A stretch of 57,016 nucleotides of DNA from an uncultured bacterium (GCA_964422635.1 CAYRBY010000003.1:1-57016), one strand, 5' to 3'. Positions 2,266-48,100 are shown, counted from the first letter of the stretch. Translations and numbers: made by a program. The notes: a model not told the origin generated them from the sequence alone.

Positions 2266-2295
2266 AGAAATTCCTCCTTGCACCAAGGTGCTCTT

Positions 2296-6325: not shown

Positions 6326-6427
6326 AACATACCCTTTCTGTTCTAAGGAGGATTGCTATTCTTCACAAGGAAGCGGTAGTGTAACGTTTGCCTCAAGTGT
6401 TTTCAACGGCGAATAAACGGCCGGCAA

Positions 6428-9049: not shown

Positions 9050-9215
9050 AAGTCCTCCTCAAAAGAGTTATCCGCTTTAAACTCTCAAGGAACGTGCCAG
9101 GATCTTGATGGCTTTTATGAAGAAGCTTTGGGGAAGAATGCCTTTTTTGAGTCAAAAGGAGCCACATTAAAGGCTCACTATTGACACATCAAAAATGCAT
9201 TAGATTAAGAGAAGA

Positions 9216-10592: not shown

Positions 10593-10668
10593 TGGTGGAC
10601 CGGACGGGGATTGAACCCATGACCTCCACAATGCCATTGTGGCGCTCTCCCAGCTGAGCTACCGGCCC
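10593..10668 (-). tRNA. tRNA-Ala (anticodon GGC), CCA encoded
   Basis: Acceptor GGGCCGG/CCGGTCC gives the G3:U70 Ala identity pair. Anticodon stem CCACA/TGTGG with loop ATGGCAT. T-arm with TTCAATC loop, then ACCA. Confidence 0.85.
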
Positions 10669-10794: not shown

Positions 10795-13700
10795 TTAAGC
10801 GGCGCTGGCAACAGCCTGACGGGCAGCTTCGGTCGTCATAAGGTCTTCAAGCAATCCGAAAATGGCTTGTAGAACATCTGCGGTCAGTTCCGGAAACAAG
10901 GAGCCCGGCTCATCCTTAAGCTGTTTGCGCAAGGATTCAACACTCAATGCGAGCTGAACAGCCCCCTCAAATTCAGGCGTATTCAGACCAGCTCCCAAAT
11001 AAACCTGCCTTGAAACAAAAACACCCGGCGCAGCTCGAATCTCCCCCTTAGCTTCGACGAGGGTGCCACTCACAAGGATGTGTGTTGTTTGGCTCGCCTC
11101 GTCCGGTTTAATGAGAAGCGGAGTATCCACGGTATAAAAATGTCTTTCCAACCCCGGAAGTCGGAACACCTCCGCCAGCCCCGGCGATGTTTCCGTCGAT
11201 TTCAAATAGGCCAACGCCACTTTTCCCAAAGCTAGTTTCTGCTCCACAAAACCCCGCGCAGTCAAAAACGGCGTCCCCTCAAAAAGCGAGAGGTCGATCA
11301 TGAGCCGTTTGCCTTCCTGAAGTTTCACTTCGCGGCCAAAATGCTGCGCCAGGGCTTGCAGCAAAACAGTTCTCCTGGATGGGTTAAGAAAGAAGTCTGC
11401 GGCAGTACGCTGCGCCGCTGAAACTTTAAAATGAGCTGACGTTCCGGGAGAGCTTTCTCTGCGGCCCTCTGCAAGAAGTGAGGCTCGGGAAATCAACCGG
11501 TCCCTCAAATTGTAAACGTTTACAGGCCCTTTAATGCCGGACAACTGCCCTGCCAAATATTCGGGAGCAAAAACGTCTTCGTCAAAAATGATGTTGAAGT
11601 CCCCGCTTCCGGCTTCATTCCCGCGTTCAAGCTGCCCCAGCACAGCTTCTTCCAGTGCATGGCCAAGCTTCTGCCCTTCTGCATCAATATTTTCTTCCCC
11701 CTCTTTTTTCCACACTTGATCCGCAGCTTTTTCAACGCCTCCAGTCTCCGCAATGTCGTGAAGGGCATTGGCCGCATTCAAACGAGGAAGCCATGGCAGA
11801 ACATTCCGCATGCTGCCCGAGCCAGGCTGTAAAGTTTCCTGGGCGGGCTCTTCTGGGCTTCGAAGCTCTGAACGGTCCACCGGCCCGCCGTAAAGGCGTT
11901 CAGCCTCCGCCTGCACCCACTCCCAGGCCCCGTTTCTTCCAACCTGCGAAAAAATCCCCTGAAGCTGGCGCCTCGACTGGGGAACCGTCTGACCCCGGTC
12001 AGCATTTCCCTGAAAATAAACCCAAAGAACATTTTCAACATATCCAGCATCCTGATCTGTAAGCGGCGGGTTGACGTCCTCATGATGCACAAAGCTGCTC
12101 ACCCATCCATGAGCTTCCCTTACCGCAGGCTCCACTTTGGGTTTAGGCTGAGGACGGGATGATGGCGTTTGCGGTTTTTGAACTTTAGCGGCCTTGGGTT
12201 CCGCCTGCTGGGATTTCTGAAACTGCTCTTTCAGCCACGTCCAGGCATGCTCCCTGCTGAAAGATGCTGCAGAGGTAATCTGTAATTCATGCACATCCTG
12301 AGCTTCGTCGGTCGAGGATGCTTCCCGGATGGGCAGCGTAAGAGTTTCGGGCGATTGCTTGGGCGCATAAGAAGCCAGATGCAAATCGTTTCTCAAAATC
12401 TCAAGCGGGATACTCCTGCGGTTAAAATACCAGCTCAAAACTGTTTTCAACAGTAAGGGCTCCGCTTTGATTTCCGGGTCAGCAAGGGTTTCAAAGGCGT
12501 CCCCCCACCCCTCGATTTCACGAGCTCGACGCTCCAGCTCATGATACAAGGCCTCCCTTTCCTTTTTCTTGCGCTGAATGTTCCTCCTCGCAATGTCCCG
12601 CTGAATCTTTTCGCGCCGCTCCAATTCCCGAAGCGCTGCGTTACGCCGTTCGCCCTCAGCTCCCATCACCAGCGGTGAAAGACCAAAAGCCGGCAGAAGG
12701 ACTTTATAAAAAAAAGCTTCGATAAAGAGACGCTGATCGTTCCAGGCCTCGAGCTGCTGCCGCGAGGGCGCAGGCACCTGAACAGATGCTTTATTATTTT
12801 CAATAGAAAAGGCATCTGTCACAAAAGAATAAACAGGGACCGGTGAATCATCGGGTTTTTCTTCTTCCTTCAGGTTTGTCCGCTGGCTGCGTTCTCCGCC
12901 AGCGCCCACAATAGCTCCCCGAAATGGAAGCCCTGCCCTGGCCAAAAACTGCGTGTTGCGGATCTGAGCAGAAACCTGCGATTTGATGGTGTTGTTGATT
13001 AACCCCTGCAGCTGAACGCCGTCATCTTCTTTAGCTTCCAAAATATACAGTCCGCCTTCGAGAACAGGTCCCGGGATCTCGACGCCTGGCTTAGGCGTCA
13101 CTTTTAGAAAACCATCAATTTCCCTGAATCCCGCATAAAGACCGAGCCCCAAAACCTGCACATCATAAAAAGGGGCAAGCTGCTCCACTAGGCGGTCCAC
13201 GATAAACAACTCCCCGGCAACCTCATTGAAGGAAGCCCTGTTTGAGTTAAGGTAGCTGCTGGCCAGGCGGCTCACCATGCTGCGCATGCCTTTGACATCC
13301 TTATATTTCTCAATAAGCGCCTTCATTTCTCCAAATTTAAAAGCGTTTTCTCCTTCCCAAAAAAGCCGGATGCGGCTTAGCTTTTCAAGCCATTCGCGGG
13401 GCTGAAACCCGAACTCATCCGGAATTTCCTCCGGACGAGGTGTATCAATTTCCTCAGCCCGGAGTTCAGACCTCTTGGGTAATTGCAAAGACTTTTCAAT
13501 CCCATCAAAATCTGGGATGTCCTGAGCAAAACGGCTGTAGGCAAAATCCAAAGAGGCTTCAAGCCTGCCCTGGTAGCTCAGAACGGCCACCGCGCTTTCT
13601 TTTGTTAAATCCGTCGTAATTCCAATACTCGGGTATTTTGTTTCCGGAGAAACGGTTTGAATGGGCGGCAAGTCTTCATCGTAACCGGAAAGCCGCCACC

Positions 13701-16700
13701 TCATAATCGCCTGAACGCTGGGTAAAGGGTAGCCCAGCAAAAATCCAAAGATCGCATCCTGATTGGTTTGTCTTTTAGGAATGTAACCGCCGGGCCGAAG
13801 CAATTCTTCGATCAATGCCGACAGAATCGGCTCAACGGCCCTTCGTATGCTCTGGGGATCATTTGCCTGCAGCGCGTTCCGGACTTCGTCAAGCAGTGCT
13901 TTATCGCTTTCTTTTAAAATGCCTTGCTCAAAAAGAAACTGCCCTTCGCGGACAAGTCTCTCAGCAACACCACGGGAATCAAGAATCATCCCCGGATCCA
14001 TAACCGAAAAATAATCGACCGGGAAATCGGGCTGGTCCTCAAGTTCGGCAATGAGCTCCAAAGGATCCGGGTCTTTTCCTGAATAAGACAAAAACCCCGG
14101 TCGAAGTCCGAGAAAAACGGAGAGAATTCCGGGATAAAAAAACTGTTCGCGGGCTTCCTGACTCATGGGATGCTGCTTGTAAAAAGCACTGAGTTCCTTA
14201 ACCCGTTTTTCAAGCACGGCTGTCTCTTCCGGGCCCAAACTTACAGCTAATGGATTTGAATCGCTTCTCAGTTCGGAGCGTCGGGGCTCATTCGGGCGGG
14301 TTGCGGCGTCCCCTCCTCGGGTCTTACTGATCGACAGGGCAAGCTGACGCAGGAGCGTGTCCACAAGCGGCTCTTCATCCATGGCTGTGAGAATCGCCTG
14401 TTTCACCTGCCTGACCTTTTCGAGCGGTGGATTTTCAATCTCCTCAGGACTCAGGTTAAGCGCACGATAAGCTGCCCGGGCCTTGCCATAAATCAAAGAA
14501 AAAGCGGCGCGTGCAGTTTCGGGATCTTGCTCCGGGAAAACAATCCTTCTAAGAAAACTAAGCCGGGCGACATCACGCTTTTTGGCCTTCTCTTCCTCAT
14601 CGGAGCTGTTTTCATAATAAAAAAAATTGCTGACGAAATGTTCTCCTGCTGAAAAATGAAGCCTGTCACTTTCTTTCAAATCACGTTTTTTCAGCCACTG
14701 GTAGATAACTTCCGGATCACTGCTGTCGGGAAGCTTATAAACAAAATCGAAATCGATAAGCCCCGCGCCCCTGGTGTCGTCACGCCGCGTGTAGATACCA
14801 AGGTTTCCCATCTTGAAATCGGCGTCAAAATAACCGGCTTTCCATAAGCCTTTCAGATTTTCCAAAACAGCTTTTGCCAAAGCCGGACGCTTCTCAGGGT
14901 TGGGGTCCCAAGCGTTATCAACCGGAATAACCTTCTTTTGCCATGACATATTGGAAGTAACTGTCCGGCCCGGTTCACTCTTCAAATCTTTTATTACGAT
15001 AGGCTTTTCCGCAACAGCTAGATCCAGATTCGAAAGTTCTGCAGAAATTTGAGCCCGCTCGTTATCTGTGTTCCAGGGAGCTTCGATCCGAAAAACTTCC
15101 CCATCCGGAATTTCTTTTTTCTTCAAAAGGTGTTGAGGATAAACAGAAGACTTGTAAATTTTTGCTGTTCCTCCGGTGGTAATTTTTTCAAGACCCAGCT
15201 GGCGGACGATCTCTGCCCAGTACTGTTCACGGGGAACATCCATTTCCAGAATCTGCGGGGGCTCTTCCTCTCGCAGCTCCGACCGGGGCAGCTCCGGAGC
15301 TGCAGTGCGGCCGGAACTCCGGATCACGAATCCATAAGCCTGGACTTCTTCGGTGGGCTTAAGATACTGAACTTCCCAGGAATCAAAAGACTGAAGCAGG
15401 TAGTCGCGGAAGGCAAGAAGCCTCGGCTCCAGTTCCTTGGATACGGCAAACGGCGTCATAAGGACAAGCACGGCGCCATCATCTTCTTTATCTGCAACAC
15501 GAAGGTGCCGGATATCAATGTCCGGTAAAAACCTTGTTAAGAGATGCGTTACAAAAACAGCGTTTGGGGCAGTTTTTCTAACATCCATGCGGCGCCCCTC
15601 ACGGAACTCCACCTGCGGGTCGAGCTCCGTCAAACTGTCGAGGTAATTGAACGGGTGGTCGCGGACAAACTCGATGACCTGATTATGCCGCTGCCGGGTC
15701 TCACTTGGGTTCCCGGGGAGTAAAAGGTCTGCCGAAACAGCAACTCTTTTGCCGCTTTGAATCTCTTCCGTCGAGATATAAACATGAACCGCATTTTTCT
15801 CTTCATCGTAGACTGAGTACACAAGAACTTCTGAAATACCGCCAGGAACACGAAAGCGGCTGGACTCGACGTTGACAGGCGCTCCAACAGATAAAGGCTG
15901 ACGCTTTAAGTTCTTTTTAGGAAGACTGAGAGTGATTTTAATTCCCCGCCGCGGCATGAGGTCGCTTGCACCTAAATCTTTTTTCCCTATTCCCGAACGG
16001 AAAAACCACAACGACAAATAGAACCATGCCGCGCGCCACAAAGGCGTCCACGCATGCAGCCAATTCCAGGCCGCCCAGTTTCTCGGATAAAACTCCTGAA
16101 CTTTCCCATCGAACTCCAGCTGAATGGTTCCCCCGAGCTGAAAAACTGCCGGCGCAATCGTATTAAAAAAGGCATGTTCCCGCTGCCCCCCGTACCCGCT
16201 CGTAAAAGACCCTCCATACATAGACTCTTCGATTCGGGAAGCATCATGGGTGTTGTAATTGCCATAGTAGTAGATAAGCTGCAGATCTTTTTCGTTCTCG
16301 TGCTTCAGTGCGAGGATGGTGCTGTTCGGCTTCATGTGAAGCTGATTGTTCTGCACAAGTTCGACGAACACTTGATGAAAATCGGAAAAATCGTAGCCGT
16401 CAAAGCGATAGAAGTTCGGCGTGGAGGGCATCTCGTCGCCATAGTCACGGGAGGCTTTATTTCCGCCCTCTTTGACAGCGGTCATAGACCGGTTGAAAGC
16501 ATCATAGATCGACCCATGGAAGAAAAAGATTCTCGGATCAACCCCAGGCATCTGCGAAATCTCAGAAAGCAGACGCCGAGCTTCCGGATGGTTGTAACTG
16601 CGTTCAAGAATCTTATAAACCTCGGCCTGATAAGCTCGGTTCGCTTCGGGGTCTAATTCTGCTTTGATATCCGGAAAGGCCTTGGCCCGGGCGTCTTCAA

Positions 16701-19700
16701 TCAGCCGGTACAAGTTGTTCTCGTGAGGCTGCCCCTTCTCATCCGCTCCGTACCAGAGCCACTGCAGCTGAACGAGCCTGCGGTTTAATTCTTTGTCAAA
16801 GTCCGGCCCCTCTAAATAGTCATGCCGAAGCTCTGAACGCGATGAAGGTGCTAACGGGCGAAGTTCATAAATACTAACCCTGCGGGATCCTTCCTTTGTT
16901 TTTTTCCATCCATAGGAATCCGCAACTGACACCTCATATTTATTTTGCGCAAGCTGTTCCCAAATCACCGCAGAAAATTCCTCCGGAAAGATAAGGTAAA
17001 CTTTTCCTCCGGGTTTGAGATACCTCGGGGCTTCAAGCAAAAACTGTCTTAGCAATGCATGGTCTTTGTCCATGCGGGCGATATCGTTTCGTTTACCGGG
17101 CCGTTCCGCGGAATACCATGGAGGGTTCCAAAAAATCACATCAAAAAGTTCCCCTTTTCGCAGCGGTGAGAAAAAATTTCCCTGCCTGATTTCAACCTGG
17201 GGATATTTTTCGAGATTCTTTTTCGCATCTCTCACAGCTTCGGGATTAATATCGATCCCCATGAAACGGGTTTCCTTTTTCCTCTGTGCTCCCTCGGCCA
17301 GAGCACCTGTCAAAACCCCGCTGCCGATTCCCATTTCAAGAATATCCGGGTTTGCAATGTTTAGAATATCCGCACCAATGACTCTATTAACCAAATGCGC
17401 CATCATGGCATCCGTGGGGTAGAGCGTCGAATCGCCTACCTGAAGCTCGCTTTCAAGTTCCCGAAGCTCCGAACGCATTCTCTTGGAAATTTCTTCATTG
17501 CCCGCTATACGCTCTCCGCCCTGTTTCAAAATTTCACGGGCCATTTCCGGAACAGGCGCAGGCAGATCTTGAAGTGCACTGCGAAGACCTTCTTTGGCTG
17601 CTCCGACATCACGCACGACAGGCGTTTCACTTCCTGGCATTGCGGATTCTGCCTGCCTGGCAATGTTTTCAAGCGTTGCCACGGATCTTCGAGCAGACTC
17701 AGTCACCGCTTCCGCTGGGGCACCTTCACGAGCGAGCTCCTGCAAGGCGCTCGTCATGACATTTCCTGGTGAAAACGGGACTTTTTCAGACGCAACGCCA
17801 GAAGTTTTTGGGAAGGAAAGAGCATGCGGTTTCTGCCAGGAAAGAACTGAACTTTGCGTCATGGCCCTCGGAATTGACAAGGCATCAGGCCGGGACCCTG
17901 AAGATGGAAAAAAAGAACTCACACTTTCAACATTCAGAGCCCCTTTTTGTTCAAGCGGCAGGAGAGCCTTTGTAAATTCTCCGAGCCCAGAAGTAAAAGC
18001 ATCCTTCCATTGCTTCACTGTATCCTTTTGAAAATTGCCAGCCTCATCCTGCAGCGCTCTCCTGACAGCTTCCTTCGTCAGCCCCGGGGATTGACCGCGA
18101 AATTTCTGCTGATACACCTTGAAAAGCAAATCAATATATCGCGTGTAATCACTGACCTGATCGATTCGGCCGTCAGCCGAAAGCCTCCGAATCACATCGT
18201 CTCGCCAAAGCTTGAGATCCTTTTTAAACTCCGGCTCTTCCACTTCTTGCATTAGCTGAATCCCCGCATGGCGGACGAACGCATCGTAATAAGTCGTTTC
18301 CAGATAACTCTTGTAAGAAAAATTTCCCTCCATCAGGCCCGCATACGTCTCATAGCCCTCCAAAGAATCGACACGGGGTGAAATCACCGCATAAGAATAC
18401 CCGCGCTTTAAAAGCTCTTCCTCAAATCCTTGTGTATGAAATCCTCCAGCGACGACCACAGCGGCTGCGGGCTTCTGCTGACGAATCAAATTTTCAAGGT
18501 TACGGTGAAAAACGCGATCTCGCTCCAAGGCGAGCCGGTAGAATTCGAGCGCCGGCATCATGCCTGCCCTCGAATCTCCCAAAAGAACCAGATGTTTTTC
18601 GGGATCCTGACGGTACCTTTCGAGTTCTTGAGGTGTCATTTCAAGCGCCGCAAGATGCTTCAAGCGCCGGAGAGCCGCACAAGCCTCCAGAATCTCCCGC
18701 TGAGGTTCGGTTGGCTTCAGTGACTTTTCCACGAGATCCAAAGCGCTTTCCAGCTCGGAAAAAACCGAAGTGCCTTTCAACATTGAAAAGCTCTCAGTAT
18801 TCAGCAAGAGACTCTGCATACCTTGGGTCAAGCGGGGCTTGAATCCGAATTTCGAGCCTTCTCGTATGAGAATACGCAGAAAATTCCCGGGGTCCAGCTG
18901 CCCGGTAAGAAAGCTTTGGTACGCAGAGGAAAACTCCGGCGTTTCCTTCTGTGGGAAATCGCGGGCTATCTTTGCCCGAAAACTTTCCGCCATTTTCCGC
19001 ACATCGGCCTCAACAGCCGCCGGCAGATTTCTGCCGTCAGCCTCGATGAGAAGGCTTAACTGCGGATAATCTTTATGAAAGAGATCTTCATGCAGTAACC
19101 CGGAGGATAGCCTTGCTTTAAAATCCTGGATCAGCTCAAACAGATTCGACTTTTCACTGTAAAAAGATTCACGAAGATCATAAAACCGGTTGAGTTCCGG
19201 ACTGAAAGCAGAATGACGTTGTTCCCCCAGCGCCAATGTGATCGACAGAAAAACCTTTTCAAGCTCAGGCTGCTGCGCGAGAGCTTCAAGGTATGCCTTT
19301 TGGTTATCTTGATACAGATTCCAATCTTCTAGTCCTGCATATTGGGATATCGAGGTTTCTGAAACTGCAGCAAGCTCTGCACCGCTCAATTCACCTCTCT
19401 CAAGATAGGCCTCTAAAACTTTTTTCTTAATAAACTTATCCGGAAAGGTTTGAAAAAAAACGGGGTCGATCTTTCCTTCACTGCCTTCGAGGGTAACAAG
19501 CCGCACCCCCTGATTCGCTTCGAGGTAGGCGATGACATTTTGGATGCTGCGCTGAGCATCTTTGACGGCATGAGCATCCTGAAGAAAAAAGATAACGGGT
19601 TTATCTTTATCTTCCCCCTGATGGAAACTCTCAACCCGTCCCAAACTTTCTGGAAAATCCTGCGGATTAAAAGCTTGAATACCCGTCTTTACCTCTAGGG

Positions 19701-19854
19701 GGATTTGAGCAAATGCACGGGGAATACTGAAATCCTTCCCGCACGAGACTGTAAAGACACAGAGAATAAGCCATGTGATAAAGGCGCGGACAGAGAACTT
19801 CCCTTTCCGGGGATGCGCAAACATAGCTTTCCTTCTGTTTGCCGGATCAGGCAA
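10795..19854 (-). CDS. giant modular protein (3,019 aa) with six RSELR-marked module junctions
   Basis: Single uninterrupted frame. The track start at 19854 is a TTG. An ATG at 19824 (MFAHPRKGK...) is preceded by AGGAAAG and is the more likely start. Amino-acid numbers used here follow the ORF-track start. See the sub-features. Confidence 0.9.
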   Translation of the reverse strand: MPDPANRRKAMFAHPRKGKFSVRAFITWLILCVFTVSCGKDFSIPRAFAQIPLEVKTGIQAFNPQDFPESLGRVESFHQGEDKDKPVIFFLQDAHAVKDAQRSIQNVIAYLEANQGVRLVTLEGSEGKIDPVFFQTFPDKFIKKKVLEAYLERGELSGAELAAVSETSISQYAGLEDWNLYQDNQKAYLEALAQQPELEKVFLSITLALGEQRHSAFSPELNRFYDLRESFYSEKSNLFELIQDFKARLSSGLLHEDLFHKDYPQLSLLIEADGRNLPAAVEADVRKMAESFRAKIARDFPQKETPEFSSAYQSFLTGQLDPGNFLRILIREGSKFGFKPRLTQGMQSLLLNTESFSMLKGTSVFSELESALDLVEKSLKPTEPQREILEACAALRRLKHLAALEMTPQELERYRQDPEKHLVLLGDSRAGMMPALEFYRLALERDRVFHRNLENLIRQQKPAAAVVVAGGFHTQGFEEELLKRGYSYAVISPRVDSLEGYETYAGLMEGNFSYKSYLETTYYDAFVRHAGIQLMQEVEEPEFKKDLKLWRDDVIRRLSADGRIDQVSDYTRYIDLLFKVYQQKFRGQSPGLTKEAVRRALQDEAGNFQKDTVKQWKDAFTSGLGEFTKALLPLEQKGALNVESVSSFFPSSGSRPDALSIPRAMTQSSVLSWQKPHALSFPKTSGVASEKVPFSPGNVMTSALQELAREGAPAEAVTESARRSVATLENIARQAESAMPGSETPVVRDVGAAKEGLRSALQDLPAPVPEMAREILKQGGERIAGNEEISKRMRSELRELESELQVGDSTLYPTDAMMAHLVNRVIGADILNIANPDILEMGIGSGVLTGALAEGAQRKKETRFMGIDINPEAVRDAKKNLEKYPQVEIRQGNFFSPLRKGELFDVIFWNPPWYSAERPGKRNDIARMDKDHALLRQFLLEAPRYLKPGGKVYLIFPEEFSAVIWEQLAQNKYEVSVADSYGWKKTKEGSRRVSIYELRPLAPSSRSELRHDYLEGPDFDKELNRRLVQLQWLWYGADEKGQPHENNLYRLIEDARAKAFPDIKAELDPEANRAYQAEVYKILERSYNHPEARRLLSEISQMPGVDPRIFFFHGSIYDAFNRSMTAVKEGGNKASRDYGDEMPSTPNFYRFDGYDFSDFHQVFVELVQNNQLHMKPNSTILALKHENEKDLQLIYYYGNYNTHDASRIEESMYGGSFTSGYGGQREHAFFNTIAPAVFQLGGTIQLEFDGKVQEFYPRNWAAWNWLHAWTPLWRAAWFYLSLWFFRSGIGKKDLGASDLMPRRGIKITLSLPKKNLKRQPLSVGAPVNVESSRFRVPGGISEVLVYSVYDEEKNAVHVYISTEEIQSGKRVAVSADLLLPGNPSETRQRHNQVIEFVRDHPFNYLDSLTELDPQVEFREGRRMDVRKTAPNAVFVTHLLTRFLPDIDIRHLRVADKEDDGAVLVLMTPFAVSKELEPRLLAFRDYLLQSFDSWEVQYLKPTEEVQAYGFVIRSSGRTAAPELPRSELREEEPPQILEMDVPREQYWAEIVRQLGLEKITTGGTAKIYKSSVYPQHLLKKKEIPDGEVFRIEAPWNTDNERAQISAELSNLDLAVAEKPIVIKDLKSEPGRTVTSNMSWQKKVIPVDNAWDPNPEKRPALAKAVLENLKGLWKAGYFDADFKMGNLGIYTRRDDTRGAGLIDFDFVYKLPDSSDPEVIYQWLKKRDLKESDRLHFSAGEHFVSNFFYYENSSDEEEKAKKRDVARLSFLRRIVFPEQDPETARAAFSLIYGKARAAYRALNLSPEEIENPPLEKVRQVKQAILTAMDEEPLVDTLLRQLALSISKTRGGDAATRPNEPRRSELRSDSNPLAVSLGPEETAVLEKRVKELSAFYKQHPMSQEAREQFFYPGILSVFLGLRPGFLSYSGKDPDPLELIAELEDQPDFPVDYFSVMDPGMILDSRGVAERLVREGQFLFEQGILKESDKALLDEVRNALQANDPQSIRRAVEPILSALIEELLRPGGYIPKRQTNQDAIFGFLLGYPLPSVQAIMRWRLSGYDEDLPPIQTVSPETKYPSIGITTDLTKESAVAVLSYQGRLEASLDFAYSRFAQDIPDFDGIEKSLQLPKRSELRAEEIDTPRPEEIPDEFGFQPREWLEKLSRIRLFWEGENAFKFGEMKALIEKYKDVKGMRSMVSRLASSYLNSNRASFNEVAGELFIVDRLVEQLAPFYDVQVLGLGLYAGFREIDGFLKVTPKPGVEIPGPVLEGGLYILEAKEDDGVQLQGLINNTIKSQVSAQIRNTQFLARAGLPFRGAIVGAGGERSQRTNLKEEEKPDDSPVPVYSFVTDAFSIENNKASVQVPAPSRQQLEAWNDQRLFIEAFFYKVLLPAFGLSPLVMGAEGERRNAALRELERREKIQRDIARRNIQRKKKEREALYHELERRAREIEGWGDAFETLADPEIKAEPLLLKTVLSWYFNRRSIPLEILRNDLHLASYAPKQSPETLTLPIREASSTDEAQDVHELQITSAASFSREHAWTWLKEQFQKSQQAEPKAAKVQKPQTPSSRPQPKPKVEPAVREAHGWVSSFVHHEDVNPPLTDQDAGYVENVLWVYFQGNADRGQTVPQSRRQLQGIFSQVGRNGAWEWVQAEAERLYGGPVDRSELRSPEEPAQETLQPGSGSMRNVLPWLPRLNAANALHDIAETGGVEKAADQVWKKEGEENIDAEGQKLGHALEEAVLGQLERGNEAGSGDFNIIFDEDVFAPEYLAGQLSGIKGPVNVYNLRDRLISRASLLAEGRRESSPGTSAHFKVSAAQRTAADFFLNPSRRTVLLQALAQHFGREVKLQEGKRLMIDLSLFEGTPFLTARGFVEQKLALGKVALAYLKSTETSPGLAEVFRLPGLERHFYTVDTPLLIKPDEASQTTHILVSGTLVEAKGEIRAAPGVFVSRQVYLGAGLNTPEFEGAVQLALSVESLRKQLKDEPGSLFPELTADVLQAIFGLLEDLMTTEAARQAVASAA
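10798..11859 (-). other. C-terminal tail domain shared by the three large proteins (aa 2666-3019)
   Basis: Follows the last RSELR. The end ...ALSVESLRKQLKDEPGSLFPELTADVLQAIFGLLEDLMTTEAARQAVASAA aligns by eye with the ends of the 4,555-aa and 1,350-aa proteins. Confidence 0.6.
11860..11874 (-). other. RSELR junction motif (3,019-aa protein, copy 6, aa 2661-2665)
   Basis: Coding strand cgt tca gag ctt cga. Context GPVD-RSELR-SPEEPA. Confidence 0.95.
11875..13458 (-). other. module of unknown function (aa 2133-2660) with a possible PD-(D/E)xK-like core, coiled-coil and Pro-rich linker
   Basis: REIDGF...(27 aa)...YILEAKEDD gives a D...ExK pattern. Arg/Glu-rich coiled-coil ERRNAALRELERREKIQRDIARRNIQRKKKEREALYHELERRAREIE. 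Pro-rich segment KVQKPQTPSSRPQPKPKVEP. The nuclease-fold idea rests on this motif only. Confidence 0.3.
13459..13473 (-). other. RSELR junction motif (3,019-aa protein, copy 5, aa 2128-2132)
   Basis: Coding strand agg tct gaa ctc cgg. Context QLPK-RSELR-AEEIDTP. Confidence 0.95.
13474..14265 (-). other. module of unknown function (aa 1864-2127)
   Basis: Bounded by RSELR copies 4 and 5. I recognise no motif. Confidence 0.4.
14266..14280 (-). other. RSELR junction motif (3,019-aa protein, copy 4, aa 1859-1863)
   Basis: Coding strand cgc tcc gaa ctg aga. Context NEPR-RSELR-SDSNPL. Confidence 0.95.
14281..15270 (-). other. protein-kinase-like module (aa 1529-1858)
   Basis: Gly-rich loop plus Lys (TTGGTAKIYK). 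Catalytic-loop-like DADFKMGN, compare HRDLKxxN. DFG-like LIDFDF about 18 aa later. Confidence 0.45.
15271..15285 (-). other. RSELR junction motif (3,019-aa protein, copy 3, aa 1524-1528)
   Basis: Coding strand cgg tcg gag ctg cga. Context PELP-RSELR-EEEPPQ. Confidence 0.95.
15286..16824 (-). other. module of unknown function (aa 1011-1523) containing a Trp-rich hydrophobic segment
   Basis: WAAWNWLHAWTPLWRAAWFYLSLWFF (nt ~15993-16083) has 7 Trp in 26 residues. A weak GHKL-like N-box (FVELVQNNQLH) was noted but is not convincing. Confidence 0.35.
16825..16839 (-). other. RSELR junction motif (3,019-aa protein, copy 2, aa 1006-1010)
   Basis: Coding strand cgt tca gag ctt cgg. Context APSS-RSELR-HDYLEG. 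Confidence 0.95.
16840..17460 (-). other. HemK/PrmC-like SAM-dependent methyltransferase module (aa 799-1005)
   Basis: SAM motif I DILEMGIGSGVL. Catalytic motif IV FDVIFWNPPWY, an NPPW variant of NPPY as in N5-glutamine / N6-adenine methyltransferases. Confidence 0.6.
17461..17475 (-). other. RSELR junction motif (3,019-aa protein, copy 1, aa 794-798)
   Basis: Coding strand cgt tcg gag ctt cgg. Context SKRM-RSELR-ELESELQ, where a degenerate echo ESELQ follows. Confidence 0.95.
17476..19854 (-). other. signal/anchor plus N-terminal domain shared with the 4,555-aa protein (aa 1-793)
   Basis: Hydrophobic N-terminus AFITWLILCVFTVSCGKD, a possible lipobox. FLQDAHAVKDAQRSIQNVIAYLEAN (QDAH at nt 19570-19581), LEGSEG, and VVVAGGFHTQGFEEELLKRGYSYAVISPRV (GGFH at nt 18436-18447) all align by eye with the paralogue. 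Confidence 0.7.
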
Positions 19855-31040: not shown

Positions 31041-31062
31041 TTCCATTTTTTGGGGATCCATT

Positions 31063-38935: not shown

Positions 38936-38975
38936 ACATTGGCTCAGCTTCGTTTGTCCAAAGCTGAGATAAAAA

Positions 38976-39050: not shown

Positions 39051-39134
39051 ATAAAGGAGGTCTAATAGGCCCGAATAAGAGGGGGTATTATACTGATTTC
39101 GCTCCGGGAAGCAAAGGCCATTTTTGATGCTTGT

Positions 39135-42100
39135 TTAAGCCGCGGCTGCGATACGCGCCTGAGCCGCAAGATAGGTCGAAACAGCCTGTACCACAGCCTG
39201 GAAATTCTGCGGGAAAAGGCTCCTGGGATTCAACACATGGAAATAATCCTCAGGCTGCTTTCCAAGCGCCATCGCCTGAAGAACCGTGATGACAGTTGAT
39301 GCAAAAAGCCCTGGATCCGACATCGCCGCCGGATCAAGGCTGAAAAGGTTCAAGCCCCTGCGCTTCGGGAAACTGCTAAAGACATCTTCTTCGCCAAGCA
39401 GCGCATGATGCTCAGCGGCTGCAAGTTTCGAATGCGGCACAGTCGCAAAAACAGATGCCCCCATTCCCCCTCTTACCTGAAGTTGTCCTCTTTTTAATTG
39501 AATCCCTTTTCCAGCGGCTAAACTCAAAATTTGTTTTTCGAATTTTCCAGCACCTTCCTCGTTCAGTGACGCCATATTCAAATGCAAAGCGCCGTTCACA
39601 GAAGCAACGACAGCGAGTACAGGAAGAAAACCAGCAAGATTTTCTGGCACTTTCGGCATTTGAACATGAACCACGGCCGAAAGCCCCGCAGCACCCTGAT
39701 CTTCGGGACTGCGCACAGGCAAACCTGAAATTTCTGACATCATTTTCTGAAGAGCCGGATCAGAAACCCCCGCCCGTTCAAAAAGTCCTGCATCATCCAT
39801 CACTTGCCGCTCCACCCATCTTTGAGCCGCTTGTTCCCGAGGAAGTTCGGCAGCCCCTTCTCGATCATCGTCTACAGCAACTTGCGCCGGCAGGCGGTCT
39901 GCAATTTGTTTAGAGGCATACACCCCTCCAAGGTCACGAGAAACATTGACCACAGAAGCCTGAACATCCGGCCCAAAAAGGCCGGGCGAGCGGAGCGCAA
40001 ACCGCGGGCTCACAGTTTCAGAAAGAGTCCGCTTCCATTCTTGAGTTGAAGAAATATCAGGGGTTGCGGCCAAGCGAAGCTCCGAACGCCCAACAAGCTC
40101 CTGTCTTTCCTTCAGTGTCCGGAACCTTTGAAAATCAGCACTTGCCACAATCTTGGCTTCGATTCGGTCCTGCAGCATGGTGGCTACAAGATTCATCTCA
40201 TCGAGCTCCGGCAGATCCCCTGCTTCCATCCGGTCGATCAGCATTTTCATAGATGCCGGTTTATAGCTGGTTCCCAGATCAAAAACGTGCTCAAGATCCT
40301 GACTATCTGTCATTCGAATCATTTCAAGCAGCTCAGGAATTTTATTGGTGGGTGCCACTAGCTGCATCTTACGGCCATGATAAATTTCAAGCGCCATCGC
40401 AGCAAAAAGCATACGGGCCGATCCGCCCCACTGACCTTCAACGGTTAGATGAAGTCCCAGTTCACGGGCTGAACCTTCAAGATCCGCTATCGCTTTCACA
40501 AGCCCCGGGTGGAGCTTGTTCATCTCATCGCTTCCTTCATCCCGGGATTCAAGCACAGACTTTTGAAGGTCATTGGTCCCGATTCCAAAAAAAGGCTTGG
40601 CCTCAGAATCCTGATGCTGTTCAAGTACGGCTTTCATAATATCCATTCGCTGCTCAACGGCCGAAACCTCTTCAAACATATAGCCAAACCGGATTTTGCT
40701 CAGCCTCTGCGTGATTTTATCTCCAAAATCAGAACCGGCCACCTTAGAGAAATCCGCGTCAGACTCCTTTCCGAACAGCTCTTCATGCGGCTTCATTTCA
40801 GCCTTGCTTAAAAGTTGCTTTCTGAACCAGTCCAACCCCTTTTCAAGCCCTTCCGCTTCCAGGGCATCGATGTCTGTGACCCACCCGTGTCGGCGCACAA
40901 CAGCGGCCTCGGTTTGGACAAGTGCTTCTTCTTCAAGTTCACGGATAAGTTCCTTCCGAGCCTCTTCAAAAAGCTTCTTCAGCGCCCCCACCTCTTCTAC
41001 TTTGAGCAGGTTCGGGAGCAAAATTTGGAGGTTGTCTTTCCGTGCACGGAGATAAGCACGGTAGATCGCCTTGATCTGCATTTTTCCAAACTCACGTTGA
41101 TTGCGGAACTCCCCGCGTTCATCCAGATAAAAACGGATATTGGAATGCGTTTTAAGAATGCTCTCAATCTGTTCTTCCGTTTTTCCCTGCACAAAAAACT
41201 TTGGGCGTTTATCTCCTTGAACGTCATAAAGGCGCACGGTCAACGGTGCTTCAGGATCAGAAAACGGCAGCAGCATTTCTTCGATGGCAAGGCTCAAGCG
41301 CATCTCGTCGAACTCAATACCCGCACGGTCCATTTCCCCCATCAATTGCTCCAGCCGGAGCAGGCCAATGCCGCGGGCCCCAAACTTTTGAAATCGCGGC
41401 TGATCGCCGTCGCGTTTCAGATAATCCAAACGCGATTCATCCGCCCAAAAATAAAAAGGCCGTCCATTAACAAGGGCCGGCAGCGACACTCGAGGAAGAA
41501 AATACGCATCCAGATACTTATAAACTTTGCCGCGCTCGATCATATCCCGCTGCGCTTCCGCGCTCGGGTTCACAACAGCAATTCCTTTCTTGCCGTCCAC
41601 GAGCACAAAATCACCTTCTTTAAGTTCCCTGAAATCCATTTTGCGGTCTTCAAAATCCAGAGCTTCAATGGGAACGATACCCTGATCTTTTGAAAAAATA
41701 AACCAGTGCGGAACACGCCCCGCCGCATCGTCCGGAGCAAAGCGTTTCAGCGTTGCGATGGAAACAACCTTTCCGCGTCCCTTATTTCTCATCATAAGCT
41801 CCGAAAAATCGGCTTCATGCCGGATCTTTTCGGCGAACACGATGAGATTCTTGTCGCCCCCGCGTTTCACGATGCCGTACTGGCTGACGTTGTAAAAACG
41901 CATGAGAAAATCGAGCTGCTCGTCGGGGAGATCGCGATACTGTTCTGATCCCTTCTGACTGAAAAATTTTGCAGTGCCATAATCCAGTGTCCGGCCGCGC
42001 TCCCTGATTTCATACATCACCTGGGTTCTGAATTCTGCAATAAATGTTCTCAGTCTTTCAGATGGGGCTGGGAAGAAGTTCAGGGTGTCTTTGTAAACAG

Positions 42101-45100
42101 CTTCAAACCTTTCAAGCTCAGCCTGCTTTTTGCGATCGCGCTCTGCCTGCAGGTCTGACGAGTCATAAATAAAATCATACGTATCAAACTCATCGCGTAT
42201 TCCTTCCAAAAGGGACCTTTGCTCTTCAAAAACCTTGATCAGTCTTGAGCCAACAAGGGTATCTCCGCCCCGTTTTCTGCTGTCTTCCACCATTTTCTTC
42301 AGACGATCCAAGCCGGGCTCGATTTTATTTTTGATAACCTGATTGATGGCGAATTGGGCGCGCTTTCCCTGCTCAACGATTTTCAGAATATCCGGAAGCA
42401 AATCGCTAATCAGCATGACGCGTCGGCCCGTCGCAATCTTCCGCTCCAAATCAATAAGCTGCTTGACCCTGTCCTTTTCGTCTTCGCCGTAATCCTCCGG
42501 TGAAATGTGCAGGCCATAAGGGAGCCTGAGAATGATTTCAAAAACTTTCACCAGAACTTGATCTCTCTCCCGGTTAATAAAAAGTTTTTTCCGCTCCTCT
42601 TCATCAAGACCGCTTTCGACATAAACAAGCTCTTCACGGTTTTCCAAGGCTGGAAGAAGTCTTTTGTCAACAATCCCAGAAGCCATGGTTAAATCCAGAT
42701 CATCCCCGGATTCTTCTTTGGCGGCAGCCAGCATCTCATCTTTCACGGTCCGCAGCGCTATCTCCGCCTTGATCTCCTGGGTCCTGATCAAGTCCATAGC
42801 CCGGCGGATCATAAGCTCTACAACATCCAGGGCTTGCGGGAGATACCCTTTCTCCTGAAGCTCACCCATGACCTGCATCCAAAGAGTGTCGAGGGTTTCA
42901 AGCTCATTGTGTATTTTTTGGACAACAACCTTGTCATCATCATAAGGTCTCTTCAGAGAAGTATTCATTTGCCGCTGGGAAGGACGCCAAAAAACCAATT
43001 CACCAGCCTCTACTTTCAGCATTTCCGGAGAAACGCCGTTAAGGCGGACATTCTGAGGGGACTTCGTTTCCTCCGATCGCAGCTCGGAGCGAACTGTATA
43101 GGCTTTTGAACTCTTTGTGGGATTCAACGGGATTTCAGGAAGGCCTTCCGCGCGGCGCGTAAACCGCAGCCCTGCAAAAAAGCTGTGCGGAACCTGCTTA
43201 CCATTAATCGTAATACCGTAAATTTCGTAATCCGGGCTGAGAGATTCAAAAAACGACTTTATATCGACCTTCTTCTGCTGTTCATCCTTAATGGACATGA
43301 TGTCCAGGTCCGTGATCAGTTCCCCGCCGACTTTAAGATGTCTCGAAAGCATGCCCACCGTGCCCGGAATGTTGCGCATATATTCCATGACGGCCTGCGT
43401 CATCACGATCACGTCAAAAGATTCGTTTTCAAAAGCTCCCAGGTTTTGCTCTAAATCCATAAGGGCAAATCTCTGCCGAACGCTGACCATAATCGTTCCG
43501 GCTTCACCCGTGTCGATGCCAAGAATCTGTGAAAGCCCCTCGTTTGAAAACAACAGGTCCTCAAACGCGCCGGAATAAATCTCTGCCTGATCGCCATACG
43601 TTCTTATCAGTTCGGCAGGAACCACGCCGCGGCCCACGCCAAGAAGGAGCACTCGAGGTTTCTGGCCGCTGGCAATACGATCCGTAATGGCCTTGGTCAC
43701 GCGGCCTCCATGCATTTCATCCAGAAAGGCAAAGTTGCGGATGACATTCTCTTCAAGGCCATATGGATTAGGCTGTTCTTCGGCCCGCAATTCAGAACGG
43801 CGCGAGTGATAAACGTTGGAATTGGCCGTAGCATCAAGAGGTATTTCATTGATCTGCTCGAAGGAACGCGTAAAGTGCAAACCCGCAAGAAGGCTCGTGG
43901 GGGCCTGTTTGCCTTCCAGCGTAATCCCGTAAATCTCATAATTGGGTCCAAGGGATTCAAAGAAACTTTTCACATCGACGCTTTTGCCTGTCACAGAATC
44001 CTTGATTGAGAAAATGTCGAAGTCCGTCATGAATTCGCCTTTCAAGGCGAGCTTGGCGGAAAGCCGGTCCACAAGCCGTGGCTTGTTCTCTATGTACTGC
44101 ATCACAGTCTGAGTGATGATAATGACGTCAAAGGACTGAGAATCAAAAGCTCCGAGATCCTTCTCTGCGTTCGAGATGACATAGCGGTCACGTATTGTTT
44201 TTATGATGGCCTCTGTTTCCGCCGCGCTTACCTTGCCCTCCCAGAACGATGCCAACTGTTCGGGTGAAAAAAGAAGATCCTCTTTGGCGGTTGAGTAAAG
44301 CTCAATTTTATCTCCGTATTCACGCAGCATGTCCGCAGGTGCCACGCCGCGTCCGATACCAATCAAGAGCACGCGGGGTTTATCCCCAGCAGCGATCCGG
44401 CGGTTAAGGGACGCCCGGATACGGCCTCCGTGCATTTCATCAACCTGAGCAAAACCACGCGTTACGTTTTCTTCGGATTTATAAGGATTGTCTTCTTCGG
44501 ATCTCAATTCCGAGCGGTTCCGGGGGCGAAGATTGTTGAGCGTATCTATCCGGTCAGTGAGATAAGCATAATCTGTTGTAAAGGCCGCTTCCGAGGGACG
44601 AATCACCCCAGCTCCAAGCTGAAGCAAAGAAAGGTATTGGGGAATCCTGTCATGCCAGTCGTTTTGTGCATTCGCGGCACGATTCGATAATGTCTTAAGA
44701 AGACTGGGGTCACGCGCAGCCGCATCAAAAGCAGCCGCGAGGGTTCCTCTGAGAGCCGCTCCGGTAAAATCGGTAAACAGAAAGCCGTTGCCATGGTCAG
44801 GGTGATCAAAGTAATTGATCAGCGTTGCGGCAATGCCTCCCACATTTCTTGCCACCACAGGCGTTCCTGAAGCCAATGATTCCAGTTGCGTAATACCGCC
44901 CGGCTCATAACGGGAAGGCATTAGAAAGAACCGGCTTGCCAGCATGACCTGCAGGGTTGTGGCGCCAGGGATAAAGGTATACTCACCGCGGATTCTGCCG
45001 GGGTATCTCCCCTCAAGTTCACGGGTCAAATCCCTCAGACGTTCTGCCGTCCCATCCCCCTCAGCAACAGGTCCACCCAGGAATATCTGCACTTCCGGGT

Positions 45101-48100
45101 TCATTTTGAGAAGACTTTCCAACACAGTCACTCCATCTTCCGTTTCCGTCAGGAGCTGGATTCCCTTCTGCTCCGCAACGCGTCCAATCATTGAGAGAAA
45201 AATCGCATTGGGGTTCTCGGTGAAACCAAAATCTTTTTGGGTTTTAACAAGTGCCGAATTTTTATAGTCCCAAAGGTTTTTGAGGAACTCTTCGTCTGAA
45301 TAGGCATCCATCAAGGGAGGCAATTCGAGCGCCTTACGGGCCTCTTCACCTTTTTTCCAGAACGTCTTTCTCGCCGAGGCTTCATCAATGCCGTTGCTGA
45401 TTCCAAACAAAATGTCTTTCAGCGGATTCAGGATATTATCAAGACCCTCCCCCGCCTCCCGCGTCAGCATTTGCTCGGCGTAGGGGCGGCTGACAGTAAG
45501 AATCGAACGGTTTACGTGTTCCATGGCGCTTGAAGTAATGTTGAGGAACCGGTCATCGTTGGGATCGGCAACATCTTTATAAAAATCGTGGTTGAGTCCC
45601 AGAAGCGGCCAAAGATCCAACCCATACTGATTCGTAAAGATTCGGCCCTGATAATCGCGTCCGTAATTGTGAATCATGTGAACCGTCCCCACATCCTTGA
45701 GCAGCGGATCTTGCGAGTATCGGGGGTCCCGCTGAAGAAATGTCGGAATTAAACCGGTAACCCAGTCATTGGAGATGATGAGCTGCGGATCGACACCGAG
45801 CGCCCTGTTTTGAACTACTTCAAGAGCGGCACGGGATAGGAAGACAGCGCGCCGTAATTCTTCCGAAGACGGCACTTTCGCATACAGTTTGTCGGCAAGC
45901 CGGGGATGTCTCAGAAAGAGGTATCGGACCCCTTCAGCTTTGGCCTCATACACACGGCTTTGGACCGTTCTTTGAAAGGTGCGGATTTTTTCATCCGTCA
46001 AGCCGGTCATGTGTGTACCCGAATCATACATCGGGCCAAATGTCATTCCGATCTCGGCGACAGGATCAGCTTTAATGGGCACCCTTTCACCGCTCTCGGT
46101 CATGAACCCCTTTTCAATCAAAGCAGACGCGGATTCATGTTTCTTGCCCTGATTATCTTCATACAGCGGCGTAATGACCGTAACGGATACGCCGCTCTCT
46201 GACAAAGCCTTGGCAAGGCCTTCTATAACTTTGGCCAGCCCTCCGGCAATCGCATGAGGACCTTCCGGAGCTACAAAAACAATTTCTCCAATACCGAGAG
46301 TTTCCAGGGCGTGCAAAGCGGGCAGCGCTCTTTCTTTGAAGAACGGATTCCACACTTTGCTGTCTTCCTTAAGACGGGTATGAATCTTTGAGAGCGCCTC
46401 GCGGAAACGGGGAACATCCTTAACTGCCTCGTAAACAATCTTTCCCATCCCTCGCATTTCCTCTTCGGTGACAAGGCGGTGAATCGTTGAGAGAAAACTA
46501 TCGTAGGGATTCGCATCAATAAGGCTCTGGCGGATTTCCTGAATGGCTTCCTGCTTTTTAAGATTACGCCGGAGGTCTTCAAGGACTGTTTTTGGCGGGA
46601 GATCGATCCTCATGACAGCATCATCACTCCGATTTTTTCCCTGCCACACCCGTTCACCTGTTTCGCGGTTTTGGGCATAGGCCGTCACGCCAAACTCACC
46701 GATCCGTCCGGGTTGAATCACTTTGCTTGCCTTGTAAATTCCTCCTCCGAGATCCTCAATGTCCCAATTAAGGATTTCGTGGTCCGTCCAATCCAACGGA
46801 CCTTGCGTATATTCTCCCCAATGAAAAAACATCTCTGATTTTTCAAGCGTTGCGGCGTCTGTCCTGAAAGTAATTTCAACCTTGGCGGAATCTCCGGACA
46901 CAGTCACAACAGGACGGGATGTAAATTGAATCGCTTCGGAATACGGTTTCTCGGACGAGCGCAGCTCTGAGCGTATTCCCATCTCTTTGTCAAAAACTTC
47001 AATGAGAATACGCCACCGCTCAAACTCACGGACCGAACTCTGTTTCAGACTCGTCCGGACCTCCTCTGCAAATCCCAGATCCACTTGCCGGAGAAGTTTC
47101 GTCATCGCCCCCTGAACATCAACATAGCTGCCCGTTTCAAAAGTGCGGAGCGCGTCATCAATATCAGACTGTACGGCCAATGCGTATCCGGGTGTATAGC
47201 TCAAGGTTTGGGCAGCCGGATCAAAGCGAATGTCGCCCGAATCATCTAAAGAAACAGCCTCTCTGAAAGTCGACAGAATCTCAGGGTCGCCAAGAACGTT
47301 TTGAAAAGTGTCCAGCAGCTCACTGTTTTCAGTTATCTCTGCCAAACCGGCCACTTTTGCCCGTTTCTCGGCCGGCAGCTTCCAGGTAAAGTCCCCCTCC
47401 GAGATCCGGCGGACAAGGAGCTTTAAAGTCTTAACATCTTCAGAGGTTTCGATATCCAATTTTCCAATCGCATTCAGAAACGCACGATCAAGACTCTCTG
47501 TCTCTGTGCTTGTTCTGAGCTCCGAACGCTGAGCTGGTTTCACGTTTGCAGAGCCGGCAAGGGCAAGACTGCTGTAGAATGTATCCCGGCTCTTTTCAAC
47601 AGCCTGAATGACATATTCATCTTTCGGATCCAGGTAGGCGGAACCTCTCAAATAACTGACAATAGAAGCATTCGCTTTCGTAAGGCTCAAAATCTCGGCG
47701 TCCGCAGGGCCGCGCAAATCAACATATACGGGCTTCATCCATTTTTTCAGCAAATCAATGGCTGAAAATTTCAAACCAACCTTTTGTCCTGGCCTTAACA
47801 CCTCTCTGAGCCTTGAACGAAACGGGAAAGAAACTCCGTTTTCCGTTTCCGGAGATTTCCTCCATGTTTCGGCAGGCTCAAGATCGCCCGTTCTTGAATC
47901 TTTAGAATAAAGCCAGGGTTCGGTGAGATAAGAATCTTCGTCGCCATAACCAAAAGTACCGCTGGGATTGTCATAAAGGAAATCAAAAAAGCCATTTTGA
48001 ACAAGCACTAAATTCGCCAGATCATAATCATAAGCCTCAATGGAAACATTCCAGCTCTCTGCCCAGACCTGAAAAGATCCAATTCCTTCTTTTGACAGAA

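Follow-up and report, generated by a model that had tools for sequence, protein, structure and literature searches.

We analysed a stretch of 57,016 nucleotides (nt) from an uncultured bacterium (GCA_964422635.1 CAYRBY010000003.1:1-57016), and the whole of this stretch is called the window below. Its minus strand carries a giant open reading frame (ORF), here named ORF A, which contains six copies of the pentapeptide RSELR and is a member of a very large, phylum-wide and apparently undescribed protein family of Candidatus Omnitrophota. We propose, with a probability of roughly 55%, that the proteins of this family are exported polyproteins which are cut at short peptide marks, the N-terminal head domain being the best candidate for the protease. 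ORF A was divided at its RSELR motifs into seven segments, A1 to A7, and its features are given here with amino acid (aa) positions counted from the first codon of the frame.

10795..19854, minus strand: giant ORF A, 3,019 codons open from TTG
17461..19854 (aa 1-798), minus strand: module A1, signal peptide, head and low-complexity linker, with the first RSELR at its end
19711..19824 (aa 11-48), minus strand: Sec-type signal peptide region, composed of a positively charged n-region and FITWLILCVFTV as hydrophobic core, and containing AFA/Q and a VSC resembling a lipobox
18265..19671 (aa 62-530), minus strand: conserved head core, candidate hydrolase of the TIKI/TraB/erythromycin-esterase superfamily
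17461..17475 (aa 794-798), minus strand: RSELR site 1
16825..17460 (aa 799-1010), minus strand: module A2, S-adenosylmethionine (SAM)-dependent methyltransferase with NPPW, RSELR site 2 at its end
16825..16839 (aa 1006-1010), minus strand: RSELR site 2
15271..16824 (aa 1011-1528), minus strand: module A3, no family assigned, RSELR site 3 at its end
15271..15285 (aa 1524-1528), minus strand: RSELR site 3
14266..15270 (aa 1529-1863), minus strand: module A4, kinase-like motifs only, RSELR site 4 at its end
14266..14280 (aa 1859-1863), minus strand: RSELR site 4
13459..14265 (aa 1864-2132), minus strand: module A5, no family assigned, RSELR site 5 at its end
13459..13473 (aa 2128-2132), minus strand: RSELR site 5
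11860..13458 (aa 2133-2665), minus strand: module A6, no family assigned, RSELR site 6 at its end
11860..11874 (aa 2661-2665), minus strand: RSELR site 6
10798..11859 (aa 2666-3019), minus strand: tail module A7, 354 aa, family-typical C-terminal domain ending ...RQAVASAA
10798..10803, minus strand: C-terminal Ala-Ala, kept across the family

The likely true start of ORF A is the ATG at nt 19824, ten codons inside the TTG-started frame, as indicated by comparison with the database protein P0012 (3,009 aa), which is 100% identical to ORF A from M11. The presence of this identical protein in a public protein library means that ORF A is no artefact of the window. The six RSELR copies begin at aa 794, 1006, 1524, 1859, 2128 and 2661, where only 0.010 copies are expected from the protein composition, and the amino acid and nucleotide positions listed for them in a first-pass annotation of this DNA are all exact. 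In a six-frame translation, 15 of the 16 RSELR of the window fall in three giant ORFs on the same strand, namely ORF A with six, its paralogue B with eight and its paralogue C with one, and no enrichment was found in the other frames of the window.

39135..52802, minus strand: paralogue B, 4,555 aa, with a homologous head, eight RSELR and a tail ending AAAA
43077-44501, minus strand: modules B6 and B7, tandem copies of one methyltransferase module, each bounded by RSELR
52958..57016, minus strand: paralogue C, extending beyond the window at its N-terminus, with modules of UDP-glucose dehydrogenase, a single RSELR and a tail of 299 aa that finishes in TQA

The codons of RSELR vary synonymously across the 15 sites. 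CGT, CGC, CGG and AGG are used for the first Arg, TCG, TCA, TCC and TCT for Ser, GAG and GAA for Glu, CTT, CTG, CTC and TTG for Leu, and CGG, CGA, AGA and CGC for the last Arg. It is therefore the peptide that is conserved, and not a DNA or RNA element. According to Pfam, the cargo of B comprises starch/glycogen-synthase-like GT5 and GT1 domains, the two tandem methyltransferases, and a domain using phosphoenolpyruvate (PEP; PEP-utilizers_C). C apparently holds two consecutive copies of a UDP-glucose/GDP-mannose dehydrogenase, the first of which is truncated where the window ends, and no RSELR separates the two; its sole RSELR precedes the tail, and its terminus is TQA rather than AA.

Family loci were sought in species-representative genomes with a back-translated pattern of the head (QDAH...), and the matches were confirmed. 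More than 531 loci were obtained in this way, nearly all of them from Candidatus Omnitrophota where the organism is named, with up to four paralogues per genome among the 80 loci kept. An exhaustive search of 1.84 billion representative proteins with a head profile returned 9,428 protein clusters at E<=1e-3 and 6,524 at E<=1e-30. Among the best 150 of the 9,428 clusters, proteins reach 7,864 aa and the head is N-terminal in nearly all, and the family members listed range from about 1 to 7.9 thousand amino acids (kaa). Word-indexed protein searches returned 6-7 short family fragments only, against the thousands found by the exhaustive search. A survey for further members, suggested as a check in the first-pass annotation, thus finds them throughout the phylum and several to a genome. 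One locus, L044 (contig CAZUJQ010000110.1), comes from a metagenome-assembled genome labelled 'uncultured Planctomycetales bacterium'; either the contig was wrongly binned or labelled, or it carries a rare member from outside Omnitrophota. At L042, the matched gene forms a tandem pair with another family member immediately upstream of it (5470-9645, plus strand), and this upstream paralogue has HH (FIQDHHAS) where the head otherwise has an invariant A-H.

No neighbouring gene is common to the loci, the most frequent neighbour cluster being found in 16 of the 80, and a conserved neighbouring protease or partner gene was accordingly rejected. The constant components are therefore those within the chain, acting in cis.

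The commonest pentapeptide in most relatives is a variant of R-[SA]-E-x-R, in which x is mostly L, V, M, A or T. This pattern occurs 362 times in 212 kaa, compared with 14.6 +/- 4.4 times in shuffled sequences, and its rate is about 1.7 per kaa in the family versus 0.18 per kaa in neighbouring ORFs. At least one such mark is present in 117 of 119 complete proteins. The first mark lies at a median distance of 699 aa after QDAH and the last at a median of 336 aa before the C-terminus, and the interior modules have a median length of 314 aa. The flanks of the marks are not conserved but show small residues upstream and acidic residues downstream, as expected of a linker. As in processed polyproteins, a short conserved peptide is found at the junctions between modules. 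Proteins L073 and L080 possess two flanking marks only, around 2,500-3,200 aa of unpunctuated cargo. P0001 (1,178 aa) is nearly free of cargo and consists of head, RSEVR, about 150 aa, RSEVR, and a tail ending TAA; P0005 (1,111 aa) and P0075 (1,053 aa) are likewise near cargo-free, have no mark and end in IAA. The existence of near cargo-free members suggests that head and tail may be functional in themselves.

A subgroup of the family uses [GA]-[AS]-S-[LM]-G, here called the G-dialect, instead of R-[SA]-E-x-R, with similar spacing and a tail of about 300-400 aa after the last mark (for example P0044, P0045, P0046, P0047, P0051, P0053, P0082 and P0115, and loci L003, L005 and L015). The two dialects are essentially mutually exclusive, in that proteins with at least two G-type marks have at most one R-type motif, and the G-dialect is largely confined to one head clade (12 of 16). 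Two mutually exclusive peptides at the same positions fit a recognition site which is read by a co-evolving enzyme.

The marks coincide with the borders of modules. Pfam domains of A, B and C sit inside motif-bounded segments. When 79 paralogues were compared by BLAST, 32% of the homology-block ends fell within 10 aa of a mark, versus 5% of random positions, and the median distance from a block end to the nearest mark was 29 aa versus 112 aa. The first-pass annotation had regarded the interior modules as swappable, and comparison of orthologues bears this out, for these differ by whole modules. In P0116, an orthologue of B with 80% identity, a single methyltransferase module stands in place of the tandem pair, and because of this single copy B6/B7 looks like a recent module duplication or loss. 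A2 is absent from P0106 and replaced by about 1,290 other residues in P0017, and P0074 carries an extra segment of about 210 aa between A4 and A5. The breakpoints in all four proteins lie within about 20 aa of RSELR, and orthologues keep the frame open across all junctions.

The N-terminal domain, which had been proposed to be shared by the giant proteins, is indeed common to A and B: pairwise comparison of A1 with the N-terminus of B gave 27% identity over about 580 aa (BLASTP E=2e-35). In the family the head is about 470 aa long. Alignments of 76 and then 147 sequences reveal as its invariant elements Q-D-A-H, E-G, two further Glu, F-Y..A..R-D, G-G-F-H, a Tyr and a Met. The invariant set in ORF A comprises D93-A-H95, E123 (28 residues after H95), H473 in GGFH, and the Arg in F-Y-x-x-A-x-x-R-D. 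Structures were predicted with AlphaFold2 for the head and the tail of ORF A. The head model (predicted local distance difference test score, pLDDT, 80.3; predicted template-modelling score 0.70) displays an alpha/beta core with strands 33-39, 48-54, 80-83, 87-90, 132-136, 425-431 and 448-454, split by a helical insertion of about 280 aa (about 139-421), and the invariant His, Glu and His are located at the C-terminal ends of strands. The top match of this model in a Foldseek search of the PDB is Bcr135 (3b55; E=0.03, probability 0.54), and the other best matches include 2rad, likewise Bcr135, and EreC (6xcs/6xcq). Bcr135, EreC and HopBA1 are members of the TIKI superfamily (PMC6254334). Among the 76 heads, sub-threshold Pfam matches point to the same superfamily, with TraB_PrgY_gumN in nine (best 0.0027), Erythro_esteras in seven (best 0.02), DUF5694 in five and ChaN in four (best 0.021).

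Active members of the TIKI superfamily are defined by a set of two His and two Glu, namely E3900-x-H3902, E3930 and H4030 in RRSP, with H85 and E113 corresponding in Bcr135, and the His-to-Glu spacing is 28 in both (PMC6254334). A set of this type with the 28-residue spacing is present in the head of ORF A, where Asp stands instead of Glu as the first acid. The head resembles the superfamily in the acid-x-His, the Glu 28 residues on and the distal His, and may do so in its modelled alpha/beta core, the superfamily having these residues at the ends of parallel strands; it differs in the helical insertion of about 280 aa and in D for E in the acid-x-His, and all matches are below significance. 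Based upon the evidence from fold, profiles and catalytic set together, the head is regarded as a divergent hydrolase of the TIKI superfamily with an intact catalytic-type set, which we consider a well-founded inference. The superfamily includes sequence-specific endopeptidases (TIKI and RRSP) as well as esterases (PMC6254334). Among the conserved positions of the head, no specificity-determining differences were found between proteins of the R- and G-dialects. Many members of the TIKI superfamily are exported or membrane-tethered, and to our knowledge none has been described as the leader domain of a polyprotein.

Hydropathy analysis shows that ORF A is strongly hydrophobic only in its N-terminal ~25 residues, and its AFA/Q aligns with a WAQ-type site of the family. 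A Sec-type signal peptide is present at the N-terminus of B as well. Among 119 complete N-termini, 108 contain a signal-peptide-like segment, with a mean net charge of +2.8 before and -0.5 after it, and a W-A-Q-like site follows the hydrophobic core in many of those inspected. In 64% of these proteins, the rest of the chain lacks strongly hydrophobic segments.

The AlphaFold2 model of the tail A7 (pLDDT 85.4) is composed of a helical half, a Rossmann-like alpha/beta half and terminal helices; a beta-barrel of the autotransporter kind was rejected on the basis of this helical and Rossmann-like model. Tails evolve rapidly in sequence. Starting from A7, jackhmmer recovered 51 of 137 family tails, and 72 of 137 were recovered from the tail of L018. 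The two sets overlap, and hhalign aligned them with 96% probability. The match of A7 to the tail of B was not significant (BLASTP E=0.034) and none was found to that of C, and no homology between the tail of A and those of B and C was detected by BLASTP, a naive hidden Markov model, jackhmmer or hhalign. Of the three, only the tail of A joins the main family tail. The shared tail proposed in the first-pass annotation therefore stands as far as A7 belongs to the tail domain of the family (jackhmmer, hhalign), whereas A, B and C have in common only a similar position, a similar size and a terminal Ala. The same restriction applies to its wider claim of a multi-gene family with conserved ends and swappable interior, in which the head, the module swapping and the phylum-wide spread were confirmed and homology between the tail of A and those of B and C was not. 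The C-terminus is Ala-Ala or Ser-Ala in 112 of 156 family proteins, and most of the others are apparently fragments. Free C-termini are recognized by PDZ- and Clp-type systems. By analogy, the Ala-Ala terminus suggests that the free C-terminus of these proteins may be recognized.

Most interior modules of ORF A had been described as unrecognisable in the first-pass annotation, and A3 to A6 gave no match in Pfam, NCBIfam or PDB sequences; likewise neither A1 nor A7 matched Pfam or NCBIfam. Its HemK-like NPPW methyltransferase corresponds to A2, which Pfam identifies as a SAM methyltransferase (Methyltransf_31 2e-12, MTS 1.5e-10, N6_N4_Mtase 5e-6) with NPPW at aa 910. Modules related to A2 occur in 11 other family members at very different positions. 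The Trp-rich aromatic segment which it had noticed in an unmatched module is located in A3 at about aa 1290-1316 in the hydropathy profile. A3 was found in four other sequences, two of which, L001 and P0017, are probably the locus and the protein of one and the same gene. A4 contains a G-rich loop TTGGTxK, D-x-K-x-x-N (DFKMGN) and IDFD in kinase-like order and spacing, and these motifs are kept in four orthologues. The claim of a kinase-like module thus holds at the level of motifs only, without support from profiles or PDB sequences, and word-indexed protein searches found no homologues; A4 is accordingly named protein-kinase-like from its motifs only. An A6-like module recurs elsewhere in the chain of P0111, P0130, P0049 and L076.

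ORFs A and B are separated by 19.3 kb on the same strand, close to the 19 kb noted before, and the genes in between are indeed ordinary metabolic and housekeeping genes of a chromosome, encoding an aminotransferase, an aldehyde dehydrogenase, SurE, YdjC, bactofilin, an ABC transporter, Sua5 and an MFS protein. No signs of a virus were seen in the window. An Rfam scan of the window found four tRNAs and nothing else. One is a tRNA-Ala(GGC) at 10593-10668 on the minus strand, about 130 nt downstream of ORF A, and another a tRNA-Glu(TTC) at 38975-39051 on the minus strand, about 85 nt downstream of ORF B, each on the strand of the giant gene. A tRNA downstream of the giant gene was rejected as a rule of the family, as few of 26 related loci have an adjacent one. 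Beyond the tRNA-Ala, downstream of A, lies a 401-aa ORF (9216-10421, minus strand) with several hydrophobic segments, a coiled-coil-like C-terminal region and no family match. A trehalose-phosphatase (OtsB-like), a GT20 trehalose-6-phosphate synthase (OtsA-like) and an alpha-amylase-family enzyme stand in a row at 5-3960 on the minus strand, with a sugar/glucan theme in common with the cargo of B and C. At 27005-34160 on the plus strand, a gene for a transglutaminase-core protein is followed by those for an ABC ATPase, a PF16949 ABC-type protein and two ORFs (477 and 555 aa) without family match; this cluster has an unusually low AT skew of -0.22 to -0.26.

Giant multi-enzyme proteins of Omnitrophota are the subject of two bioRxiv preprints. 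In the first account their processing is suspected, and the cleavage points are stated to be unknown, which blocks analysis (West-Roberts et al. 2023, 10.1101/2023.11.21.568195); the second is that of Nielsen & Lui 2026 (10.64898/2026.06.07.730766). The roles of giant ORFs in the phylum have been called poorly understood (PMC10066038). The present family shares with these giants the phylum, the signal peptide, weak sequence conservation and suspected processing, as well as the same cargo Pfams, namely starch synthase PF08323, GT1 PF00534, methyltransferase PF08241 and PPDK/PEP-utilising domains. They differ in size, as those studies deal with proteins of at least 10-30 kaa, compared with 3,019 aa for A, 4,555 aa for B and up to 7,864 aa for the listed relatives. 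The combination of unrelated enzyme Pfams with a signal peptide or transmembrane segment in Omnitrophota, by which Nielsen & Lui define their class 1, is found here, but neither A and B nor any of the 150 listed relatives attains the length of at least 10 kaa set for that class. Neither study describes a TIKI-like head, punctuation by R-[SA]-E-x-R or [GA][AS]S[LM]G, or an Ala-Ala tail. A literature search retrieved no description of the head-mark-tail grammar and no papers on Omnitrophota polyproteins, and RSELR matched only the name of a piece of software. Modular, probably processed, giant exported proteins were thus known already, and what is new here is a specific, apparently undescribed grammar.

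Outside the phylum, the closest functional analogue is the MARTX toxins, although their defining features are absent here. They too are large secreted proteins with conserved ends and variable effector modules shuffled between strains, and they release these modules through an in-built protease acting at short inter-module sites, comparable with the cutting proposed for ORF A. The MARTX protease cuts after Leu. MARTX toxins are distinguished by Gly-rich repeats at both the N- and the C-terminus, a C80 cysteine protease, and type I secretion, which uses a C-terminal signal and no N-terminal signal peptide. No Pfam match to a C80 protease or to Gly-rich repeats was found on any segment of A, B and C; A, B and 108 of 119 relatives begin with a Sec-type signal peptide, the candidate protease in ORF A is the TIKI-like head, and the marks are R-[SA]-E-x-R. 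The MARTX effector RRSP is itself an endopeptidase of the TIKI family (PMC6254334). Polyproteins of picornaviruses and potyviruses resemble the present family in the long product, the short conserved peptide at junctions and a protease in the same chain (a candidate one here). In contrast to them, the family of ORF A is cellular, chromosomal and multi-paralogous, carries metabolic or modifying cargo, and has a signal peptide for export.

The motif, its enrichment, its conservation at the peptide level, its position at borders, the family, the residues of the head, the tail and the turnover of modules were observed directly; from them we infer cleavage, which protease is responsible, that the whole chain is exported, and where the modules go. 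In the proposed mechanism, the chain would be made whole and directed to the Sec pathway by its N-terminal signal peptide. It would consist of the conserved hydrolase head, a variable number of unrelated enzyme-sized modules, and a tail of about 300-350 aa with a free Ala-Ala. Each junction bears R-[SA]-E-x-R, in this genome in the form RSELR, and this mark is most likely a site of endoproteolytic processing. Cutting there would free head and tail and release the modules as separate proteins. The head would be the best protease candidate, because a hydrolase-type domain is the sole universal enzymatic element in cis. Since every module brings its borders along, paralogues can acquire, lose or duplicate modules, or pass them to one another, and the system stays intact. 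A processing site is what best fits a linker peptide motif placed at borders, retained at the head/cargo and cargo/tail junctions, and replaced as a whole by a second dialect. The delivery or processing scaffold proposed in the first-pass annotation is compatible with all of this evidence.

Several points weigh against the polyprotein reading with the head as protease. The case for cleavage is built on sequence grammar throughout. The head of ORF A has no match to the clan Pfams PF01963, PF05139 and PF04187, the matches of its relatives are below threshold, and the head profile retrieved nothing relevant from PDB sequences. The Foldseek matches of the head are weak (E>=0.03, template-modelling scores of 0.15-0.26), with HopBA1 (5t09) at rank 42. 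Membership of a superfamily with esterases and non-enzymes does not imply protease activity, and the identity of the conserved head residues in both dialects is a poor fit to a head site which reads the motif. The tail has no recognisable fold or function, as the A7 model gave no significant fold match in the PDB (best E=0.066). Export of enzymes which depend on SAM, nicotinamide adenine dinucleotide (NAD), PEP or nucleotide sugars would be metabolically odd unless they act in another cell. As a speculation, cofactor-dependent cargo outside the cytoplasm could act in or on another cell, which would suit the episymbiotic or predatory lifestyle proposed for Omnitrophota (PMC10066038).

These points shape the alternatives. 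A more far-reaching form of the polyprotein reading, which we entertain tentatively and at less than even odds, takes the family as a self-contained, Sec-exported and self-processing system, in which the TIKI-type head would cut at R-type marks, or at G-type marks in one lineage, the interchangeable enzymes would be set free beyond the cytoplasm and plausibly reach the inside or the surface of a host or prey cell, the Ala-Ala tail would serve as a recognition or export handle, and the marks would be the cleavage code of the giant proteins of the phylum. A head that reads both dialects would need variable specificity pockets; otherwise a trans-acting protease would be needed. Such a separate Omnitrophota protease, with some other task for the head, such as that of an esterase or a glycan-related hydrolase, anchoring at a membrane or surface, or assistance in folding or export, is unlikely in our view but deserves to be taken seriously. 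The conserved residues of the head are the same in both dialects, and a trans enzyme could co-vary with dialect by lineage; the G-dialect is largely that of a single clade (12 of 16), all three loci seen in genome JAKQXH01 (L005, L015 and L036) use it, and the TIKI superfamily includes esterases and haem binders. On the other hand, no protease gene is conserved beside the loci, every head has a complete catalytic-type residue set, and apart from the tail nothing else is universal in cis.

The chain may also remain whole as a mega-enzyme or tethered assembly line, with R-[SA]-E-x-R as a conserved linker element that docks a partner, is modified (for instance by a kinase-like or methyltransferase module of the chain) or acts as a hinge. 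Giant Omnitrophota proteins have been detected by proteomics and discussed as single coats or assemblies (PMC10066038), cleavage is itself a proposal, and the modules of B and C are thematically related as sugar-nucleotide and glycan enzymes. This is rather improbable, since a structural linker is not expected to switch wholesale to [GA][AS]S[LM]G at kept positions, marks are retained at the head/cargo and cargo/tail junctions even where the cargo is unpunctuated, and the free shuffling of module order and context fits independent units better than an ordered line. A nucleic-acid signal, serving recombination during module exchange or the processing of RNA and translated only incidentally as RSELR, would be in line with the exchange of modules at RSELR points. 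It is very improbable indeed: no fixed DNA sequence is common to the 15 sites, synonymous codons alternate at each of the five positions, the relatives keep the peptide pattern with a variable x, and no enrichment exists in other frames. A DNA-level repeat or recombination signal is effectively refuted by the synonymous codon variation at the sites. Least of all do we believe that ORF A arose from separate genes fused by an assembly or sequencing error: nothing was found in favour of this, the identical 3,009-aa protein stands independently in the protein library, thousands of relatives have the same architecture, and the frame is open across all junctions in orthologues.

The widespread phylum Omnitrophota consists of ultra-small, probably host-dependent bacteria and is marked by giant ORFs with poor annotation. 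The family described here may provide the missing cleavage map for its giant proteins. Its grammar turns an opaque protein of 3-8 kaa into a list of predicted mature products and names a candidate protease with specific residues, for which thousands of members are available for comparison. If cleavage is true, the family would represent a rare polyprotein strategy in bacteria which is cellular and chromosomally encoded, a natural system of plug-in enzyme modules, and a handle on the route by which these episymbionts or predators bring enzymes out of their own cytoplasm. If the marks are a general cleavage code, any such giant protein would be dissectable in silico into its mature products.

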